Shown here piece by piece: positions 9,416 through 44,748 of a stretch of DNA of 44,748 bases. The notes beneath the pieces are model-generated. The model saw only the letters and a program-made list of their open reading frames with translations, was not told the origin of the DNA and searched no databases. Both the position numbers and the translations under genes were made by a program. This DNA comes from a virus: UHGV virus genome UHGV-0124463; one strand, written 5' to 3'. Numbering within the stretch: position 1 is the first letter of the stretch; each line of letters opens with the position of its first letter.

Positions 9416-9717
9416 TGGCAGGGGCGGCTAAACGCAGTCGCCTCTCGGAGCTGCACCGCATGTTCACTGAGGCCTTGATTGAAGAAATCAAGCAGTCCAA
9501 GGAGGACGAGGTGCCGCTCCCCGCCGCAGATAAATCGGTTATCGCTAAGTTCTTGAAGGACAACGACATCACCGCGGACGCAGATTCCGAGGAGATGCAG
9601 GACCTTCGCGACGAGTTCGATGACGAACTAGCGGCGCGTAGAGAGGCGCGTAAGCAAGAGATTCTAAATAAAGTTGGTGGTTCAGACTCTGAGGACTTAC
9701 TAGAAGGAATTGTATAA
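9415..9717 (+). CDS. terminase small subunit (DNA maturase A) candidate
   Basis: 100-aa acidic protein immediately upstream of and overlapping the large terminase gene. Confidence 0.45.
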   Translation: MAGAAKRSRLSELHRMFTEALIEEIKQSKEDEVPLPAADKSVIAKFLKDNDITADADSEEMQDLRDEFDDELAARREARKQEILNKVGGSDSEDLLEGIV

Positions 9718-11573
9718 TGGTATCGGTGAAGACTGCGCGAAGACTGCGCATGCTCAACCAGAAACTTACTGGTTATAGTGCGAATCCGCGCAGTATTCCC
9801 AAAGAGGAGCGCGAGGACATCGCGATGATGATGGCCGCCGCGTTAAGTGACTTCCGGGAATTCGCGTACATCGGTATGCGATTCCTGGGTTTTACGCTGA
9901 CGGACATGCAGGCCGACATTGCAGAGTACATGCAGAAGGGCCCTAGGAAGCGCATGGTGGCTGCGCAGCGTGGTGAGGCTAAGTCTACACTAGCTGCGCT
10001 CTACGCCGTCTGGAGGCTCATACAGGACCAATCCTGCCGCATCCTGATTGTGTCCGGTGCAGAGAAGCAGGCGTCCGACGTTGCGAACCTTATCATCCGT
10101 ATGCTGGAAACCTGGCCGCTGCTGTGCTACTTGAAGGCTGACCCTACTCGTGGGGACCGTACTTCATTCGAAGGCTATGATGTCAACTGCGACCTGAAAC
10201 CGCTGGACAAATCCGCCAGCGTAGCCTGTGTAGGTATCACTGCATCCCTGCAGGGGAAGCGCGCGGACCTGCTGATTCCAGATGATATCGAGACCACCAA
10301 GAACGGTTTAACGCAAACCCAGCGTGAGCAGCTGCTGATGATTTCTAAAGACTTCGCAGCTATCTGTACGCACGGGGATACGCTGTACCTGGGCACACCG
10401 CAGACCAAGGACAGTATCTATAAAACCCTGCCGGGACGTGGCTTCGAGGTCCGCGTATGGCCCGGGCGCATTCCGTCTGTTGAAATGGAAGAGCGATATG
10501 GAAGTACACTTGCTCCTTATATCCTGGAGCTTATTGAGCGCGGCTATAAACGCACCGGCTTCGGCGTCGACGGGACGCTAGGCGAGAGCACGGACACCGG
10601 GCGCTATGACGAGGATGCGCTGATTGAGAAGGAGCTGGACTTTGGTCCAGAAGGCTTCCAGCTGCAGTACATGCTCGACACTACTCTGTCCGACCAGATG
10701 CGTACGCGCATCAAGCTTTCTGATATGCTGGTTTACTCCGGCAGCCAGGATTCCTCCCCGGAGACATTCTCCTACATTGCGGACCGCAGGTACCTGTACC
10801 AGCACGAGCATGAGGGGATTATGGGTCAGCAGATGTACTTCCCGGCATTCTACGGGGACATGCACCTGCCGTACCAGCATAAGGTACTGGTGGTGGACCC
10901 GGCTGGTTGTGGTGGGGACGAAGTGTCCTACGCTGCTGGAGGTGCTGCGAACTCGTACATTCACCTATTCTCCGTAGGCGGATTCCAAGGAGGTATCAGC
11001 GAAGAGAACATTGATAAACTGATTGACCTGTGTGTAGAGTTGGACATCCCGGATATGGTGGTGGAGAGCAATATGGGGCACGGTACCGTGTCTATGCTTA
11101 TCCTGAACCGATTACGTGAGCGGCGTCTCGCCGGTATCGGTGTAAGGGACCTGAATAACTCCACGCAGAAAGAGCGTCGTATCATCGACACAATCAGCCC
11201 AGTTACTCGTCGCCATCGCCTGGTAGTGCATGAGCGTGCTATTCACGACGATATCAGTACCTGTATGGCATATTCCCGCGATAGGCGTTGGCTGTACTCT
11301 GCGTTCGCGCAGTTGTCTGGTATCACGTACGACCGCGGTAGCCTTGCGAAGGATGACCGGGCAGACGCAATCGCCATGATGGTGGCTACGCTGAATGGGC
11401 ATCTGGTGGAAGATGAGAAAGTGGTGGCTGAGCGTGAGTCTGAGAAGATGGCTCGGGCCTTCATTGAGAACCCACTGGATTGGGCACAGAGCAAAGTGTC
11501 TAAGGGCCTTCGTGGTGTAGCTGCTCGGCTACATAACCGGGGCAGAGGTAAACAACATAGAGGAAGAAGATAA
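9717..11573 (+). CDS. terminase large subunit (DNA maturase B)
   Basis: 618 aa; Walker-A-like AAQRGEAKST, ATPase and nuclease acidic motifs; T7 gp19-like size and position. Confidence 0.8.
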   Translation: MVSVKTARRLRMLNQKLTGYSANPRSIPKEEREDIAMMMAAALSDFREFAYIGMRFLGFTLTDMQADIAEYMQKGPRKRMVAAQRGEAKSTLAALYAVWRLIQDQSCRILIVSGAEKQASDVANLIIRMLETWPLLCYLKADPTRGDRTSFEGYDVNCDLKPLDKSASVACVGITASLQGKRADLLIPDDIETTKNGLTQTQREQLLMISKDFAAICTHGDTLYLGTPQTKDSIYKTLPGRGFEVRVWPGRIPSVEMEERYGSTLAPYILELIERGYKRTGFGVDGTLGESTDTGRYDEDALIEKELDFGPEGFQLQYMLDTTLSDQMRTRIKLSDMLVYSGSQDSSPETFSYIADRRYLYQHEHEGIMGQQMYFPAFYGDMHLPYQHKVLVVDPAGCGGDEVSYAAGGAANSYIHLFSVGGFQGGISEENIDKLIDLCVELDIPDMVVESNMGHGTVSMLILNRLRERRLAGIGVRDLNNSTQKERRIIDTISPVTRRHRLVVHERAIHDDISTCMAYSRDRRWLYSAFAQLSGITYDRGSLAKDDRADAIAMMVATLNGHLVEDEKVVAERESEKMARAFIENPLDWAQSKVSKGLRGVAARLHNRGRGKQHRGRR

Positions 11574-11947
11574 TGGCATCAATCATCGCAGCTAAAACTG
11601 CGGACGTCCAGTACTCCATTGTAGGCACGTGCCAGAACCTGGAGAAGCAGGTGCAGCCGGACTACAACGTAGGCTTCGTAGGTACGACTGCCCTGACTAA
11701 GCTGAACGCGTTCTTCACGTACATGCAGTCCCAGGGCTATACGGCTACCCGTGCCGGTACAGCCTTTAAGGATGACGGTACGCTGCAGGCGCGCCTGTTC
11801 AGCATGCTGTCACAGCTCTCTAAGACCGGCTACGTTGCCCTTACAGGTACAGGTATGCCGCTCGGTGAGGGCTCCGGTACAGCGTTTGATGATTCGTTCA
11901 CTGCACTGCAGAGTGCATTCGTAGCCGCCACTGATGCGGCAGAATAA
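11573..11947 (+). CDS. hypothetical protein
   Basis: 124-aa ORF, start overlaps terminase stop (ATGA-type junction). Confidence 0.4.
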   Translation: MASIIAAKTADVQYSIVGTCQNLEKQVQPDYNVGFVGTTALTKLNAFFTYMQSQGYTATRAGTAFKDDGTLQARLFSMLSQLSKTGYVALTGTGMPLGEGSGTAFDDSFTALQSAFVAATDAAE

Positions 11948-11958
11948 GGAGAGTACAC

Positions 11959-12141
11959 ATGGCAATTGCAAAAGCAACCTCAGCGCAACAGCAGGAGCTG
12001 TTGCGTCAGCTGAACATTCTCGGTAAGGACCTGTATGCTATCCTTACGCAGCCGCAGAACGTGGCCCAGACTGGTGCTGCCTTCGATACCAAGATTGCTG
12101 CGCTTGAAGCCGCGGTGGCCGCAGTGAAGGCTGCTAGCTAA
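11959..12141 (+). CDS. hypothetical small protein
   Basis: 60-aa ORF with RBS GGAGAG upstream, Ala/Gln-rich helical-looking. Confidence 0.35.
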   Translation: MAIAKATSAQQQELLRQLNILGKDLYAILTQPQNVAQTGAAFDTKIAALEAAVAAVKAAS

Positions 12142-12545
12142 TGCGTAAACTGGTCGCTGGGTTGCTGCTCGCGGTTACTCTGACTGGTTGCTCGGCGACC
12201 TCTGCACTCACCGGCTTAGTTGGTTCTAAGCCGGATGTATCTGCTCAGGTTGGTGCCGAGAACACCAAACAAACCGTTGGCTTGAATAACAAGGTGGACT
12301 CCAGCACCACCAACAAAACTGATGTACAGGATTCTAACGTAGGCACTTTGGACACGTCCAGTAAGAAGCAGGTGCAAACTATTAGCACCGGGACAATCCA
12401 GGCAGAACGCCTGCAGGTGGTTAACAATGATAGTTACAGTCTTATCCTCGCCGGATTAGCTGGGGCCAGTATTCCTCTGGTCTTCCTAGTGGTCATTCTG
12501 GTGATTCGTAAGCTGTTCAGGAAGAAGGGGCAGCAGGATGATTAA
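12141..12545 (+). CDS. spanin-like lipoprotein with C-terminal transmembrane anchor (unimolecular spanin candidate)
   Basis: N-terminal signal plus lipobox LTGC, Ser/Thr-rich periplasmic region, C-terminal hydrophobic helix followed by RKLFRKK. Confidence 0.5.
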   Translation: MRKLVAGLLLAVTLTGCSATSALTGLVGSKPDVSAQVGAENTKQTVGLNNKVDSSTTNKTDVQDSNVGTLDTSSKKQVQTISTGTIQAERLQVVNNDSYSLILAGLAGASIPLVFLVVILVIRKLFRKKGQQDD

Positions 12546-12789
12546 GGTGGGAGACATGGTTGGAGCAGACCTCGCTACCCGGGCAGGTGCAGCAGTTACC
12601 GGCGCTACGGTATCAGGAGGTTGGTTGGCAGAGTTAATGAGCTGGAACTGGAGCACTATCAGCTTCATCACTGCGACTGTGTGCGCAGTGCTAACCCTGG
12701 CGTGGAATGCGTATTACAAGCGACGTACATTCAAGCTCCTAGAAGAGCAGGCGCGTAAGGGGACTATTAAATATGAGTTTAAGGACTAA
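12538..12789 (+). CDS. holin (pinholin-like) candidate
   Basis: 83 aa, weakly hydrophobic Gly/Ala-rich first segment and strongly hydrophobic second helix, charged C-terminus; sits immediately upstream of the SAR endolysin. Confidence 0.45.
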   Translation: MIKVGDMVGADLATRAGAAVTGATVSGGWLAELMSWNWSTISFITATVCAVLTLAWNAYYKRRTFKLLEEQARKGTIKYEFKD

Positions 12790-13381
12790 GGTTATTGCGG
12801 CCCTCACGGGGGCCACTATGCTGGGTGGTGCTATTACCGGGGTGGTTCAGCACAACGAGGGATTGAGCCTTACCGCCTATAAGGATAGTGCCGGTGTCCC
12901 TACAATCTGCTACGGGGAGACAAAGGGCGTCAAGATGGGCCAGAGAGCCACGCTGAGCGATTGTCAGAAGCAACTGATAGAATCAGCAGGGGCACATGCA
13001 AAGGCTCTTGACGGGCTTCCTATGCAGCTCTCTGACGTAGCTCTGGTTGGGTCTGTAGACTTCATTTATAACGTAGGCGTAGCTGGCTTCAACGGCAGTG
13101 CTGTGAAGCGGCACCTCAAAAGCCTGAATTACGCAGAAGCTGGAAAGGCCGTACTGGACTGGCGCTATATTAGCAAGTATCAGCAGAAATCCCCGGGCAT
13201 CGGTTGGGTGTACAAGGGCAGCAACCGCTGGACCTTCGACTGCTCTCAGTATATTAACGGGCAGCGCAATAAAGTGTGCTGGGGCCTATGGGAGCGCAGA
13301 CAGTGGCAGAGCAAGGCCATTGGGAATCAGTATAAGAATGTAAATGCTGCAGTGGCAGCTCTTACTAAGACCGGAGGATAA
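12773..13381 (+). CDS. SAR endolysin, T4-lysozyme-type muramidase
   Basis: N-terminal signal-anchor-release-like segment VIAALTGATMLGGAITGVV; catalytic E-8aa-D-5aa-T in NEGLSLTAYKDSAGVPT. Confidence 0.75.
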   Translation: MSLRTKVIAALTGATMLGGAITGVVQHNEGLSLTAYKDSAGVPTICYGETKGVKMGQRATLSDCQKQLIESAGAHAKALDGLPMQLSDVALVGSVDFIYNVGVAGFNGSAVKRHLKSLNYAEAGKAVLDWRYISKYQQKSPGIGWVYKGSNRWTFDCSQYINGQRNKVCWGLWERRQWQSKAIGNQYKNVNAAVAALTKTGG

Positions 13382-15337
13382 ATGGCGTTAATTAGATTAG
13401 TAGCTCCAGAGCGGGTATTCTCCGACTTGGCGAGCATGGTAGCATATCCAAACTTTCAGGTACAGGACAAGATTATCCTGCTGGGCAGCGCCGGTGGGGA
13501 CTTCACCTTTACTACTGCCGCGTCGGTAGTGGATAACGGAACTGTGTTTGCTGTACCTGGTGGGTATCTACTCCGTAAATTCGTGGGTCCGGCATACAGC
13601 TCCTGGTTCAGCAATTGGGCGGGCATAGTAACGTTCATGAGCGCACCTAATAGGCACCTGGTTGTGGACACAGTCCTGCAGGCCACGAGTGTGCTCAACA
13701 TCAAAAGCAACTCTACGCTGGAGTTTACTGATACCGGAAGAATCCTGCCGGATGCCTCGGTTGCACGTCAAGTGCTTAACATTATCGGCTCGGCACCCTC
13801 GGCATTCGTCCCGTTAGCGGCGGATGCCACAGCGGGCAGCAAAGTCATTACGGTGGCTGCCGGGGCTTTGTCTGCGGTAAAAGGTACGTACTTGTATCTT
13901 CGCTCTAACAAGCTGTGTGATGGTGGTCCTAACACCTACGGTGTAAAGATTTCCCAGATTAGGAAAGTGGTGGGGGTTAGCACCTCCGGTGGCGTCACCA
14001 GTATTCGGCTGGATAAAGCGCTGCACTATAACTACTACCTGTCTGATGCCGCGGAAGTAGGTATCCCGACAATGGTGGAGAACGTAACCTTAGTATCCCC
14101 GTACATCAACGAGTTCGGCTACGACGATTTGAACCGGTTCTTTACTATCGGTATCTCTGCCAACTTTGCCGCGGACTTGCACATCCAGGACGGGGTTATT
14201 ATTGGCAACAAACGCCCCGGGGCTTCTGATATAGAAGGGCGTAGTGCTATCAAGTTCAATAACTGCGTAGATAGTACCGTTAAGGGTACGTGCTTCTACA
14301 ACATCGGATGGTACGGGGTAGAGGTGCTCGGCTGCTCAGAGGACACGGAAGTACACGATATCCACGCCATGGACGTACGCCACGCAATCTCTCTGAACTG
14401 GCAGAGCACTGCAGACGGGGACAAGTGGGGAGAGCCTATCGAGTTCTTAGGCGTTAACTGCGAAGCCTACAGCACAACCCATGCCGGGTTTGATACTCAC
14501 GACATTGGTAAGCGTGTGAAGTTCGTTCGCTGCGTTTCATACGACAGTGCTGACGATGGGTTCCAAGCGCGCACTAACGGGGTAGAGTACTTGAACTGTC
14601 GAGCTTACCGCGCAGCATTTGATGGGTTCGCCTCCAACACCGGTGTAGGCTTCCCTATCTATAGAGAGTGCTTAGCTTATGACAACGTACGCTCTGGCTT
14701 TAACTGTTCGTACGGTGGTGGCTACGTTTATGACTGTGAGGCTCACGGTAGCCAGAACGGTGTCCGCACCAACGGAGGTTGTGTTAAAGGCGGTCGGTAC
14801 ACTCGCAACTCCAGCTCTCACATCTTCGTCACTAAGGATGTAGCTGAGACGGCGCAGACGTCCCTGGAGATTGATGGCGTGAGCATGCGCTACGACGGTA
14901 CCGGAAGAGCTGTGTACTTCCACGGGACTATGGGCATTAACCCTACCATGGTATCTATGTCCAATAATGACATGACCGGTCACGGCTTGTCCTGGGCATT
15001 ACTGAGTGGCTACACTGTTCAACCTACGCCTCCGCGCATGTCCAGGAACTTACTGGATGACACAGGTATCCGTGGAGTGGCAACGCTGGTTGCTGGCGAG
15101 GCTACAGTCAACGCCCGTGTACGCGGAAACTTTGGCAGCGTAGCTAACTCCTTCAAGTGGGTGTCTGAGGTTAAGTTGACGCGGTTAACCTTTCCTTCTA
15201 GTGCTGGGGCCTTGACGGTTACTGGCGTAGCACAGAACCAGGATGTACCTACACCTAATCCGGACCTAAACAGCTTCGTGATTAGGAGTAGTAACGCAGC
15301 GGATGTATCCCAGGTAGCCTGGGAGGTGTATCTCTAA
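13382..15337 (+). CDS. tailspike / polysaccharide depolymerase candidate
   Basis: 651 aa, rich in Gly/Asn/Thr/Val with periodic beta-strand-like repeats and scattered Cys; placed after the lysis cassette. Confidence 0.45.
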   Translation: MALIRLVAPERVFSDLASMVAYPNFQVQDKIILLGSAGGDFTFTTAASVVDNGTVFAVPGGYLLRKFVGPAYSSWFSNWAGIVTFMSAPNRHLVVDTVLQATSVLNIKSNSTLEFTDTGRILPDASVARQVLNIIGSAPSAFVPLAADATAGSKVITVAAGALSAVKGTYLYLRSNKLCDGGPNTYGVKISQIRKVVGVSTSGGVTSIRLDKALHYNYYLSDAAEVGIPTMVENVTLVSPYINEFGYDDLNRFFTIGISANFAADLHIQDGVIIGNKRPGASDIEGRSAIKFNNCVDSTVKGTCFYNIGWYGVEVLGCSEDTEVHDIHAMDVRHAISLNWQSTADGDKWGEPIEFLGVNCEAYSTTHAGFDTHDIGKRVKFVRCVSYDSADDGFQARTNGVEYLNCRAYRAAFDGFASNTGVGFPIYRECLAYDNVRSGFNCSYGGGYVYDCEAHGSQNGVRTNGGCVKGGRYTRNSSSHIFVTKDVAETAQTSLEIDGVSMRYDGTGRAVYFHGTMGINPTMVSMSNNDMTGHGLSWALLSGYTVQPTPPRMSRNLLDDTGIRGVATLVAGEATVNARVRGNFGSVANSFKWVSEVKLTRLTFPSSAGALTVTGVAQNQDVPTPNPDLNSFVIRSSNAADVSQVAWEVYL

Positions 15338-15433
15338 GTAGCTCCCTGGGGTATCTCTATGGTATCCCGGGGCACTACTTGGGGTGCACGTCTATACCTG
15401 GACCTGAAATTTATTAGACTTTAAAATGAGGAT

Positions 15434-15895
15434 ATGTCTATGAACATCAAATATGACACAACATCCCCTAGCTGCTTGGTGTGGCTCAAGGGTAGGCGCG
15501 CCGGTGCTCCAGCGGGTACCCGCAACACTCGTGGCTACTGGGTGGTACAGGTATCTGGTAGAAAGATACAGGCACACCGCCTCATCTGGGAACTACACAA
15601 CGGGCCTATTCCAGACGGATATGTGGTGGACCACATCAACCAAAACCCCAGTGACAACCGCCTAGAGAACCTGCGCTTGGCTACTCTCAGTGAGAATAAC
15701 TGCAATGCTCGCAGGGCTGAGCGCGAACACCCTAGAGGCGTATACTACACTGGCACTTGCTGGCGCGGGGAGTTCTGGAAGGACGGTAAGCGTTATATGA
15801 AGAAGCACAGCTCCTACGAGGTTATCTGCAAGTGGGTACAAGAGAAACGTCAAGAGCAACACAAGGCCTTCACCCCGGGGCAGGTGTATATCTGA
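15434..15895 (+). CDS. HNH homing endonuclease with AP2-like DNA-binding domain
   Basis: Motif VVDHINQNPSDNRLENLRLATLSEN followed by GVYYTGTCWRGEFWKDGKRY. Confidence 0.75.
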   Translation: MSMNIKYDTTSPSCLVWLKGRRAGAPAGTRNTRGYWVVQVSGRKIQAHRLIWELHNGPIPDGYVVDHINQNPSDNRLENLRLATLSENNCNARRAEREHPRGVYYTGTCWRGEFWKDGKRYMKKHSSYEVICKWVQEKRQEQHKAFTPGQVYI

Positions 15896-16425
15896 AACCA
15901 AAAATTATTATACTCGCCCTTGGGCCTCCCTCACCCTCAGCGCGAGCAATTGCCCCCATAGGGGGTGCCTAGCGCATAAACAGAGGGGGTGGGGCCACCT
16001 AGGGCGCACTAGTAGGCACCAGCGGGCCTCAGCGGGCCTGTGCTGCGTTCTAGTGCTATCGCTAGTGCTACCCTATGGCTATCCCTGTGCGTTCACTAGG
16101 GCGCTTCCTGTGCGCTCTCTGTGGGCCATAGGGGTGCGCTCTGCCTTACCTATTTTGTGCGCCTCAGTGTGGCACCTAGGGGCGTGTCCATTGCTTATTT
16201 TGCGCGTCCATAGTGGGCCCGCCTAGTGCGCTGTAGTGCGTCACGGTGCTATCCCTAGTATGCACTAGGCGATCCACTGGCTATCCCTAGTGCTTTACAT
16301 TGTGCCGATTATATGCTACGCTGCGCGCTCCCCCCTAGGGCGCACATCCTCACCCAACACTATCCCGGCGCTATCTCTTTGCTATCCTTTTGCTCTTACT
16401 TTCATTCGAAAGCTGTCATGAAATG
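15896..16425. repeat. repeat-rich non-coding region (short direct repeats and recurring 10-mer CTAGGGCGCA); probable genome-terminus region
   Basis: No credible ORF; CTAGGGCGCA at 15999 and 16335 (9/10 at 16096; also 17330), tandem cagcgggcct x2, repeated ctagtgcta and ctatccct. Confidence 0.5.
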
Positions 16426-16442
16426 ATGTTACAGGAGTAGGA
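16426..16442 (+). promoter_or_regulatory. copy of 17-bp motif ATGTTACAGGAGTAGGA (candidate phage RNAP promoter)
   Basis: Exact match to copies at 4834..4851 and 37985..38002; in non-coding DNA. Confidence 0.4.
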
Positions 16443-16633
16443 GGGTTTTAGGGCACTATATACACACTACTTACTACTACTCACTAGTAGTCACTAGTAT
16501 CCCCTAGTAATGCCCTGTATGACTGACCGTAGGGAGGGAAGCATTACCTAGAATCTTGTAACCTCCGCTCCTATCCCTCCGGGATATCGTCGCTATGGTT
16601 ACGCTACTAATCACTATGTAAGGAGATATTGTT

Positions 16634-17020
16634 GTGGCTAGAACATTTAAGATTGTGGTTGATAAGGAAGGTTATCCAGTGATTAATGGTGCTGGGCCTG
16701 AGTATGTGAATAAGCGAGGTAAGAGAGACTATAAGACTGTGGCGCTGCATAGGGCCGTGGTTATGGATGCTCTGGGAATCACTAGCTACGGTTCTGGCTA
16801 TCACGTACATCACTGTGACAGTAACCGCCTTAACTGTGACTTCAATAACCTGATACTGGTTAGCGCTGACACTCACCGGGCCATACACTTAGCACAGATT
16901 CAGGAAGGGAGATGCTTCACAAAGGATGAGTTATTGGCTAGTCCTGAGTACGATACTAACTGGCGAGAGTTCTACGTGACTTATGGGGACTACAATAGTT
17001 TACTGCACGCAGACCTTTAG
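16634..17020 (+). CDS. HNH endonuclease
   Basis: GTG start after RBS TAAGGAGA; motif HVHHCDSNRLNCDFNNLILVSADTHRAIH. Confidence 0.6.
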   Translation: MARTFKIVVDKEGYPVINGAGPEYVNKRGKRDYKTVALHRAVVMDALGITSYGSGYHVHHCDSNRLNCDFNNLILVSADTHRAIHLAQIQEGRCFTKDELLASPEYDTNWREFYVTYGDYNSLLHADL

Positions 17021-17070
17021 GGGTCTGCTTACTCTTTTTGCTCCCAGTGATAAAAAGTTTAAAAAAGTAC

Positions 17071-17100
17071 TTGCTTCTTTTGGTTCAATAGGGCTATAGT
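17071..17100 (+). promoter_or_regulatory. sigma70-like promoter candidate (TTGCTT-N18-TATAGT) with A-rich upstream element
   Basis: Read directly; preceded by gataaaaagtttaaaaaag. Confidence 0.35.
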
Positions 17101-17202
17101 TCAATCACCGGGAGGCACTGAGGCGCTAACCGGGGCAGAGTCGGGAGATTCAGCCGGATTAAAGCTAGATAGTGTGAAGGGTTAGACACTCAATAAAAAG
17201 AG

Positions 17203-17231
17203 TTGACACCGCGAAGAACATAAGCTAGATT
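17203..17231 (+). promoter_or_regulatory. sigma70-like promoter candidate (TTGACA-N17-TAGATT)
   Basis: Consensus -35 hexamer and 17-bp spacer read directly. Confidence 0.45.
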
Positions 17232-17271
17232 GAATCCCGAAGTAAGCAGTAAGGCAGTAAGAAATAAACGC

Positions 17272-17300
17272 TTGACAAGTTCTGATTCACTGAGTAACTT
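17272..17300 (+). promoter_or_regulatory. sigma70-like promoter candidate (TTGACA-N17-TAACTT)
   Basis: Consensus -35 hexamer and 17-bp spacer read directly. Confidence 0.4.
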
Positions 17301-17650
17301 AGATAGCGAACAAGGCAAGGATAACCACTCTAGGGCGCAAGGATGTGTGTCCCGTCGGATTAGGCTAGACGTTAAAAATGACCTCTTAAAGGTTTAGTAG
17401 TAAGCTGGTTTGCGGGGAGGCCCAGTACCTTGACTGGTACGTTGACGACCCACCCCTAGACAATCAGTTAAAGAGTAAACGTGCCGGACGTTATCACCGG
17501 GGTTCTGAGGCAAACCATACTGCCGAGGCGAGAGCAGCTCGCTCCTCTGAATCGAGGGAACAAGGCGCGGAGTGTATCCCGCAAAGAGCATATAACATAG
17601 CGCAGCAGTAACAAGGTTGCGCTAGATTATGTTCTCTGAGAGGTAAGAGT

Positions 17651-17848
17651 ATGCGCAAATCAAAGCGTTTAGCATTACGGCGGAATATGCAATTATCACT
17701 GAATCCCACCGACGACGTGCCGCTTACTGTGAAGCCTAGCAAACAAGGGTTGAGCAGTGAGCACAGGGTGAGGGGAAAGCAAAAACAAAAGGGCAGTAGC
17801 AGGCAGCCATCTGGATGGCCTACTGTTAACTCCCAATTTGGTCGATAA
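17651..17848 (+). CDS. small basic hypothetical protein (first early ORF)
   Basis: 65 aa, Lys/Arg-rich, strong RBS GAGAGGTAAGAG before ATG. Confidence 0.4.
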   Translation: MRKSKRLALRRNMQLSLNPTDDVPLTVKPSKQGLSSEHRVRGKQKQKGSSRQPSGWPTVNSQFGR

Positions 17849-17919
17849 TTACAGCCTATAGCATCCTACGGGGTGCTATGTGAAGTAATTACCTAAACAA
17901 CCAATCAAAGAGGTGCATT

Positions 17920-43062: not shown

Positions 43063-44748
43063 ATGGCGCAATCATTAGAAGGTACTATTCAGAGCTTGCT
43101 GCAGGGCGTTTCCCAGCAGGTTCCGAGAGAGCGCCAACCAGGACAACTGGGGGCGCAGCTGAACATGCTCAGCGACCCGGTTTCCGGTATCCGCCGCAGA
43201 CCCCCGGGTGAGATTGTCTGGGAAAGCACGATTGATAATCCAGGGCTTGATTCCCTGTTCACTGAATACGTAGAGCGTGGAACTGACGGCAGGCACCTGC
43301 TGATTAACACCAGCAACGGTAACTGGTGGTTACTGGCTAAGAATGGAAAGACCATCCTTAACTCCGGAAACGACCCGTACTTTATTACCACCGTGGGTCA
43401 GACCTCTTTGCAGACCGCGAGTATTGCTGGACTGACTTATATCCTGAATACGGAGATGGCCCCGAACACAACCGTGGACAATACGGGGCGTATTGACCCA
43501 GGCACCACTGGGTTCTTCTACGTTAAATCTGCAGCATTCCAGAAACGCTGGAACGTCACTGTTACATCTGCCGGGGTAGATTACTCCGGGGACTACACCG
43601 CCCCAGCTGCTGGCAGTACCAGTGGTAACGCTGAGGAGGTATCAGGTGCCTACGTTGCTCAGCAGCTGCGAGACTCTCTTGTAGCGAATGGATTGCCAGC
43701 TGGGAACGTTAGCGTACGCGGCGCATACTTGTTCTTCTATGGGTTGAGCAACTGTGTGGTATCCTCCGACGCTGGCGATACTTATGCTGGGGTATCCAAC
43801 CAGTCTCGTGTAGACCAGGAGCAGGACCTACCTGCACAGCTCCCAGCGCAAGCTGACGGGGCGATGTGTCGTGTAGGTACAGCCTCGTCTGAGACAGCGT
43901 GGTACCAGTTCAGCTACAGCACCCGCACCTGGTCTGAGGTGGGAGCGTACGGCAGCATCACCAAGATTACGAACATGCCCCGAGAGCTTGCTGCAGATGA
44001 CAACATTATTGCGCGGGATTGGGAGGGGCGTTTAGCTGGTAACGACGACAATAACAGCGACCCCGGATTCGTGGAGAATGGATACATCACCGGCATTGCA
44101 GCTTTCCAGGGCCGCTTGGTTCTGCTTAGTGGTAGCTCCGTGGATATGTCTGCCTCAGGTCTGTACCAGCGCTTCTACCGCTCCACTGTGACGTCTCTGC
44201 TGGATACGGACCGTATCAGCATTAGCTCTGCGTCTGCACAGGATTCTGTGTATCGTACCGCTGTGCAGTTCAACCGGGACTTGGTCCTGTTTGCTAACAG
44301 CATGCAGGCGGTTGTGCCGGGTTCAGCGGTACTCACCCCCACTAACGCAAGTATTAGCATCACCAGCACCTACGAGTGTGATAGCCGTGTGACTCCGGTA
44401 ATGGCGGGGCAGACGGTAATCTACCCGAATAAGCGCAACAACAGCTACGCGGGTATACTGGAGCTAATCCCATCACCATATACTGCGGCGCAGTACACTA
44501 CGCAGGACGCCACGGTGCACCTGCCGCGGTACATTCCCGGCAGGGTATTGCAGATGCAAAACTCCAGTGTCACCAATATGGCCTTCTCACGAATGTCCGG
44601 AGAGCGAAATAACCTGCTGGTCTATGAGTTTATGTGGGGTGGGAGTGATGGTGCTAAGATGCAAGCGTCGTGGCATAAATGGACGTTCCCATATCCAATC
44701 CTGAGCGTGCAGGCGCTGGAGGATGAGGTGTTCTTGTATATGCAAGGG
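43063..44748 (+). CDS. tail tubular protein B (T7 gp12-like), 5' portion; continues at window start
   Basis: ATG 43063 after AAGGAGAGG; frame stays open to the last base and continues in frame into 32..748 via the 54-bp repeat. Confidence 0.7.
   Translation, partial: MAQSLEGTIQSLLQGVSQQVPRERQPGQLGAQLNMLSDPVSGIRRRPPGEIVWESTIDNPGLDSLFTEYVERGTDGRHLLINTSNGNWWLLAKNGKTILNSGNDPYFITTVGQTSLQTASIAGLTYILNTEMAPNTTVDNTGRIDPGTTGFFYVKSAAFQKRWNVTVTSAGVDYSGDYTAPAAGSTSGNAEEVSGAYVAQQLRDSLVANGLPAGNVSVRGAYLFFYGLSNCVVSSDAGDTYAGVSNQSRVDQEQDLPAQLPAQADGAMCRVGTASSETAWYQFSYSTRTWSEVGAYGSITKITNMPRELAADDNIIARDWEGRLAGNDDNNSDPGFVENGYITGIAAFQGRLVLLSGSSVDMSASGLYQRFYRSTVTSLLDTDRISISSASAQDSVYRTAVQFNRDLVLFANSMQAVVPGSAVLTPTNASISITSTYECDSRVTPVMAGQTVIYPNKRNNSYAGILELIPSPYTAAQYTTQDATVHLPRYIPGRVLQMQNSSVTNMAFSRMSGERNNLLVYEFMWGGSDGAKMQASWHKWTFPYPILSVQALEDEVFLYMQG

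Follow-up and report, generated by a model that had tools for sequence, protein, structure and literature searches.

A KP34-type lysis cassette with u-spanin, putative pinholin and signal-anchor-release endolysin genes in a Klebsiella Drulisvirus genome

In the phages classified as 'Kp34likevirus', the gene order unimolecular spanin (u-spanin), holin and signal-anchor-release (SAR) endolysin has been used as a hallmark and as a genus criterion (Eriksson et al. 2015, PMC4411677). This cassette was described for KP34, SU503, SU552A, NTUH-K2044-K1-1 and F19, where it was contrasted with the cassette of phiKMV (PMC4411677), and the same gene order has been reported for the Pectobacterium Phimunavirus phages (PMC6115819) and for the Drulisvirus phage JKP2 (PMC10194101). 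The prototype u-spanin is encoded by gene 11 of phage T1, which complements the lysis defect of lambda RzRz1, and KP34, F19 and NTUH-K2044-K1-1 are listed among the 28 members of the T1 family (Kongari et al. 2018, Table 5, PMC6139136). The locus studied here lies at positions 12141-13381 of the virus genome UHGV-0124463, a stretch of 44,748 nucleotides that was analyzed as a whole and is referred to below as the window. It holds three genes with the motifs expected of such a cassette and with homology to T1 gp11 and to the S and R families of phage 21, and it is very probably the cassette by which a Klebsiella phage of the KP34-like group (Drulisvirus) lyses its host in three steps. The open reading frames (ORFs) were found exactly at the positions given in a preliminary description of this DNA, which had been made by reading the letters and had proposed a lysis cassette:

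12141-12545, plus strand: u-spanin of the T1 gp11 family, 134 amino acids (aa), assigned by its lipobox, C-terminal helix, match to PHROG 1804 and homology to T1 gp11
12538-12789, plus strand: holin, 83 aa, probably a pinholin of the phage 21 type, assigned by PF04971, PHROG 20 and the alignment with EssD
12773-13381, plus strand: SAR endolysin, 202 aa, a T4-lysozyme-like muramidase, assigned by PF00959, PHROG 7 (endolysin), the catalytic triad and the SAR segment

Judged from its sequence, the 134-aa protein is a unimolecular spanin of the T1 gp11 type. It matched PHROG 1804 ('Rz-like spanin') over its whole length at 6e-52, and it was 42% identical to T1 gp11 (sequence taken from NC_005833) over 125 of its 134 residues, with a pairwise E-value of 3e-26. 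When the protein was compared with the T1 genome by tblastn, 47% identity was obtained over residues 17-99 (E 3e-13). The similarity to T1 gp11 lies above the threshold applied to family members in PMC6139136, where a minimum of 40% identity across 40% or more of the length was required. A four-way alignment of the spanins of the window, T1, Erwinia phage Loshitsa2 and Salmonella phage KKP 3828 contained 38 invariant columns, including the block AQVGAENTKQ, and the homologues in close relatives carry the GenBank labels 'U-spanin' or 'spanin'.

The architecture of the protein was as expected for this type. The N-terminus reads MRK-LVAGLLLAVTLTG-C17, i.e. a basic n-region followed by a hydrophobic core of 13 residues, and the lipobox LTGC occupies residues 14-17, with Cys17 as the predicted lipidation site; the Pfam model LPAM_1 scored 20.3 bits against a cut-off of 20. 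The residue at position +2 is Ser18, not Asp. After a lipidated Cys, a +2 residue other than Asp leads to Lol-dependent sorting to the outer membrane, and because the residue here is Ser rather than Asp the spanin would be expected to be sorted there. The most hydrophobic stretch of the protein is the uncharged C-terminal helix SLILAGLAGASIPLVFLVVILVI (residues 100-122, mean Kyte-Doolittle (KD) hydropathy 2.69), which is followed by the basic tail RKLFRKKGQQDD, with RKLFRKK directly behind residue 122. In an AlphaFold model computed from the single sequence both terminal helices were present, and residues 97-129 were helical with block values of the predicted local distance difference test (pLDDT) of 65-83. 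The periplasmic domain comprises 82 residues and is rich in Thr, Ser and Val. The lipoprotein signal and the C-terminal transmembrane helix with its basic tail, both claimed beforehand, were thus found to be present.

It had also been proposed that this protein acts as a unimolecular spanin rather than as one half of a two-component pair, and a check for a second spanin ORF embedded in another frame had been suggested. In a six-frame lipobox scan of positions 11500-13500 no ORF besides the spanin carried a lipobox. When the entire window was scanned more strictly, with a basic N-terminus and an uncharged hydrophobic core demanded, the coding strand yielded no further ORF that was convincing as a lipoprotein gene. 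The other hits to the regular expression, considered as an embedded or separate o-spanin, were antisense ORFs on the minus strand inside long structural genes and were rejected. A GTG-initiated ORF of 30-38 aa at 16110, which matched the regular expression without further support, was likewise rejected as a lipoprotein. Together with the homology to T1 gp11 and the match to PHROG 1804, these scans bore out the unimolecular assignment.

Phage lipoproteins with other roles exist, and the 134-aa protein might instead be a superinfection-exclusion or receptor-blocking lipoprotein of the Llp/Cor type; no functional test of a KP34-group protein was found in the literature. Such a role is extremely unlikely, given that the protein carries a C-terminal membrane helix besides its lipobox and is clearly homologous to T1 gp11, whose gene complements the RzRz1 defect (PMC6139136). 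Moreover, its gene lies in the lysis cassette and shares 8 nt with that of the holin, and the stricter scan gave no other candidate for a spanin in the genome.

The assignment of the 202-aa protein as a SAR endolysin was supported by both of its parts. The enzyme matched PF00959 at 1.1e-20 as well as PHROG 7 (endolysin), and its catalytic triad, E29-X8-D38-X5-T44, was invariant across five aligned endolysins (those of the window, RrrD, T1 gp12 and two podophage homologues), in agreement with the intact E-D-T triad reported in the preliminary description. The SAR segment VIAALTGATMLGGAITGVV spans residues 7-25; it is uncharged, contains 58% Gly, Ala, Ser and Thr, has a mean KD of 1.82 and is free of Cys. 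R4 and K6 precede the segment, and the catalytic Glu29 lies 4 residues behind it. For comparison, the SAR segment of RrrD has the same length, a mean KD of 2.11 and 63% of the same four residues. The best matches in the PDB were 3hde, the full-length SAR endolysin R of phage 21, and 4zpu (RrrD); both alignments start at residue 2 and so include the SAR segment.

A signal peptide was predicted for the orthologous endolysin in the JKP2 paper (PMC10194101), and the basic n-region (R4, K6) followed by a hydrophobic core would also suit an ordinary signal peptide that is cleaved, which would make the protein a secreted 'SP-endolysin' and not one with a releasable signal anchor. This is very unlikely, since the segment is rich in Gly, Ala and Thr (58%) and matches the SAR segment of RrrD in length and composition, since in 3hde the SAR domain of phage 21 R can be paired with it residue for residue, and since Glu29 follows only 4 residues past it, as in SAR endolysins. 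For the SAR endolysin, tethering without cleavage and release upon depolarisation are predicted. SAR segments without Cys go with R21-type regulation, as opposed to the disulfide caging of the P1 Lyz type, and the Cys-free segment found here points to what would be R21-type regulation.

Two regions of the endolysin of the window have no counterpart in R21 and RrrD: about 32 aa inserted at roughly residues 138-170, among them Cys157 and Cys169, and a tail of about 20 aa at the C-terminus. Both lie within window positions 13184-13381 (residues about 138-202), are also absent from T1 gp12 and are shared by the enzymes of Koutsourovirus KKP 3828 and Erwinia phage Loshitsa2. The insertion with its two Cys may be a regulatory or wall-binding element that R21 does not have, a doubtful proposal that is weighed below jointly with one on the holin.

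The 83-aa protein encoded between spanin and endolysin is likely a pinholin with two membrane segments, as far as its homology and composition indicate. It has a strong hydrophobic segment at about residues 38-60 and a charged C-terminal tail, while residues of about 16-31 form a weak, uncharged segment with 75% Gly, Ala, Ser and Thr and a mean KD of 1.03. The Pfam family PF04971 ('P21 holin S') matched residues 27-66 with 26.6 bits (E 6.1e-06), and PHROG 20 (holin) matched the protein at 4.7e-17. The alignment with EssD of the DLP12 prophage showed 28% identity with both hydrophobic segments in register, the first of them being more hydrophobic in the holin of the window than in EssD (mean KD 1.03 vs 0.68). 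The gene of EssD is the first in the DLP12 prophage lysis cassette, upstream of rrrD, and EssD is taken here as the counterpart of phage 21 S.

Nothing that was found contradicts the assignment of the locus as a lysis cassette as a whole; the observations that weigh against details of it concern the score and topology of the holin, the fold of the spanin, and experiments. For the spanin, the single-sequence AlphaFold model had a mean pLDDT of 57.5, and residues 30-95 reached only about 48-53, with a single short helix at 34-40. No confident periplasmic fold was thus obtained, and the model did not confirm the pattern described for the gp11 family, in which a short helix is followed by four or more beta strands without a coiled coil. 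The searchable literature on lysis proteins of the Drulisvirus/KP34 group consisted of in silico descriptions and reviews, and no experimental test was found in it. For the holin, only residues 38-60 exceed a KD mean of 1.0 over 19 residues, whereas the segment 16-31 never reaches 1.0; the PF04971 score is marginal (26.6 vs a gathering cut-off of 26); and one membrane helix was predicted for the Drulisvirus holin both by Eriksson et al. (PMC4411677) and in the JKP2 paper (PMC10194101). The pinholin class of the protein is suggested by weak homology together with the pairing with a SAR endolysin.

The same three holin observations, i.e. the single region above the hydropathy limit, the single transmembrane helix predicted in both papers and the Pfam score barely above its cut-off, would be expected of a canonical holin of class III, with one membrane helix and large holes, whose pairing with a Sec-exported endolysin would be incidental to hole size. 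We consider this unlikely. In the alignment, the first hydrophobic segment of EssD is the counterpart of residues 16-31, and these residues, 75% of them Gly, Ala, Ser or Thr, exceed it in hydropathy. In the phage 21 pinholin the first membrane segment leaves the membrane, so that the active form has one helix. A prediction of one helix with the N-terminus outside therefore equals the active pinholin topology, and the two readings of the topology are compatible. Furthermore, both published studies still conclude that the protein is a pinholin, because the endolysin is of the SAR type (PMC4411677, PMC10194101). The proposal of a pinholin-like holin with two segments thus held with respect to the homology to PF04971 and EssD; the two segments are plausible, but the published predictions give a single helix. 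Only the pairing with the SAR endolysin suggests that the holes would be small and depolarising and would not let the endolysin pass.

The holin gene contains a second in-frame ATG (Met7, position 12556), which is preceded by its own Shine-Dalgarno-like sequence, AAGGTGG; Met1 also has a Shine-Dalgarno-like sequence. Met7 falls opposite the first Met of EssD in the alignment, but it is missing in the 65%-identical holin of Koutsourovirus KKP 3828, the nearest other genus. A dual-start antiholin is unsupported because the pair of Met1 and Met7 is not kept in that genus. If the Met1 and Met7 products did form an antiholin/holin pair, with the Gly/Ala-rich first segment leaving the membrane, the published description of the Drulisvirus holin as a one-helix 'class III' protein would be wrong. 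Taken jointly, this possibility and that of a regulatory or wall-binding endolysin insertion are quite improbable.

With a pinholin, a SAR endolysin and a u-spanin, lysis would be expected to proceed in three steps, each of which is drawn from the paradigm systems of phage 21 and T1. The endolysin would be exported by the Sec system of the host, and its weakly hydrophobic N-terminal SAR segment would keep the lysozyme tethered and inactive in the inner membrane. The 83-aa holin would build up in the same membrane until it triggers at a programmed time, and the small holes formed would collapse the proton-motive force. Depolarisation would then free the endolysin into the periplasm, where it may refold so that the site formed by E29, D38 and T44 can cut the glycan strands of the peptidoglycan. 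The spanin would carry its lipid on Cys17 and reside in the outer membrane, with its C-terminal helix held in the inner one, so that it spans the periplasm across the meshwork of peptidoglycan. Degradation of the wall would then leave it free to join the inner and outer membranes and to fuse or disrupt both, and the progeny would be let out.

The cassette lies downstream of the large terminase subunit gene and is followed by a tailspike gene:

9717-11573, plus strand: large terminase subunit (Pfam T7 terminase RNaseH-like domain, PHROG 38), upstream of the cassette
11573-11947, plus strand: small conserved ORF, 124 aa (phrog_7128), hypothetical in relatives, between terminase and spanin
11959-12141, plus strand: small conserved ORF, 60 aa (phrog_7375), hypothetical in relatives, adjoining the spanin
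13382-15337, plus strand: K1-capsule-specific polysaccharide lyase tailspike, 651 aa (Pfam K1-lyase_N, Rider and C domains; phrog_18512 over the full length)

The genes are closely packed. The stop codon of the 60-aa ORF overlaps the spanin start in a TAATG junction, the spanin and holin genes overlap by 8 nt and the holin and endolysin genes by 17 nt, and the TAA of the endolysin abuts the ATG of the tailspike. A purine-rich, Shine-Dalgarno-like sequence lies ahead of each start in the cassette. This packing is that of a translationally coupled cassette. The 60-aa ORF is grouped with the cassette by translational juxtaposition only and is a putative neighbour rather than a member of the lysis genes; no obvious hydrophobic segment was seen in its translation or in that of the 124-aa ORF when these two were inspected by eye, the hydropathy scripts having covered other ORFs. 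A scan of positions 9500-15600 for sigma-70 promoters and intrinsic terminators gave counts not above those of shuffled sequence, and none of the hits was sensibly placed. These chance-level counts gave no evidence of a promoter or terminator internal to the cassette.

Over a 2-kb query, the DNA was 95-98% identical to the Klebsiella phages BUCT-H1, BUCT631, vB_KpnP_BUCT712, KpV41 and NTUH-K2044-K1-1. The query matched 250 phage records, of which 208 covered at least 80% of it and 234 were named Klebsiella phage. BUCT631 is classed as Autographiviridae; Slopekvirinae; Drulisvirus, and the long ORFs of the window are all on one strand. From the DNA identity to Drulisvirus phages, this classification and the single coding strand it follows that the window is the complete, circularly permuted genome of a KP34-like podophage (Klebsiella Drulisvirus).

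Several further features of the window were noted. The tailspike at 13382-15337 makes K1 the probable capsule specificity of the phage, as in NTUH-K2044-K1-1. It is followed by an ORF of 153 aa (15434-15895, plus strand), which corresponds to a 'putative HNH endonuclease' of BUCT631. The stretch from about 15900 to 17900 has few long ORFs and resembles relatives only in patches (76-86% query coverage, split into 3-5 pieces), which fits a variable early region and the genome-end area of the phage. An exact direct repeat of 54 nt was present at the window ends (20-73 and 44695-44748, 44,675 nt apart) and resembles the overlap left by a circular assembly, while the first 19 nt of the window mismatch positions 44676-44694, which suggests that the start carries a minor artefact of assembly or trimming.

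The observation made in the preliminary description was therefore confirmed and its interpretation supported, except that the gene order spanin, holin, endolysin downstream of the terminase had been called distinctive. The order is real, but it is the published hallmark of the KP34-like phages and also occurs in Phimunavirus (PMC4411677, PMC6115819); it was seen as well in the records of Koutsourovirus KKP 3828 and Erwinia phage Loshitsa2. The cassette is an ordinary and already known KP34-type module, in print since 2015: papers of 2015 and 2018 describe it together with its gene order and the assignment of the u-spanin, hundreds of Drulisvirus GenBank records annotate these features, and in the records of near-identical phages the genes are already labelled 'U-spanin', 'holin' and 'endolysin'. 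The practical value of the result lies in annotation, as it confirms that the window is a KP34-like phage of Klebsiella carrying a K1-lyase tailspike, and phages of this type are used in phage-therapy work. It also indicates that a u-spanin/pinholin/SAR-endolysin cassette can be recovered from the raw sequence by a first-stage reader. The residual uncertainty concerns the topology and class of the holin and the role of the endolysin insertion, and neither outcome would surprise a specialist.

Among the systems compared, phiKMV belongs to a related podophage group and shares the strategy of pinholin and SAR endolysin (Briers et al. 2011, cited in PMC4411677), but its genes follow the order holin, endolysin, Rz, Rz1 and it has a two-component spanin (PMC4411677). 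Its cassette showed about 30% similarity to that of KP34 over 22% coverage (PMC4411677). S21 and R21 of phage 21, and EssD and RrrD of DLP12, have the PF04971 holin, the E-X8-D-X5-T triad and the N-terminal SAR segment in common with the proteins of the window; the identity is only 27-28%, however, and the endolysin described here differs by its insertion of about 32 aa and its tail of about 20 aa. DLP12 differs further in possessing a two-component spanin, RzpD with RzoD embedded.

T1 gp11 resembles the spanin of the window in its size (133 vs 134 aa), its lipobox (LSGC in T1, LTGC here), its periplasmic domain of about 80 residues, its C-terminal membrane helix and the shared AQVGAENTKQ block, whereas the sequences of the C-terminal helix and tail are not conserved. 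The spanin gene is the last in T1 (holin, endolysin, spanin) and the first here, which is a published difference. The closest correspondence was with KP34 and the other Drulisvirus phages: the three genes of the cassette and their order agree, the large terminase subunit and two small ORFs likewise precede them, and the holin also has 83 aa. In tblastn, spanins with 90% identity or more to that of the window were encoded in about 250 phage records, and the KP34 record GQ413938.2 encodes a holin that is 98.8% identical. Nothing of substance distinguishes the window from this group, of which it represents another isolate, with a K1-lyase tailspike downstream of the cassette as in NTUH-K2044-K1-1.

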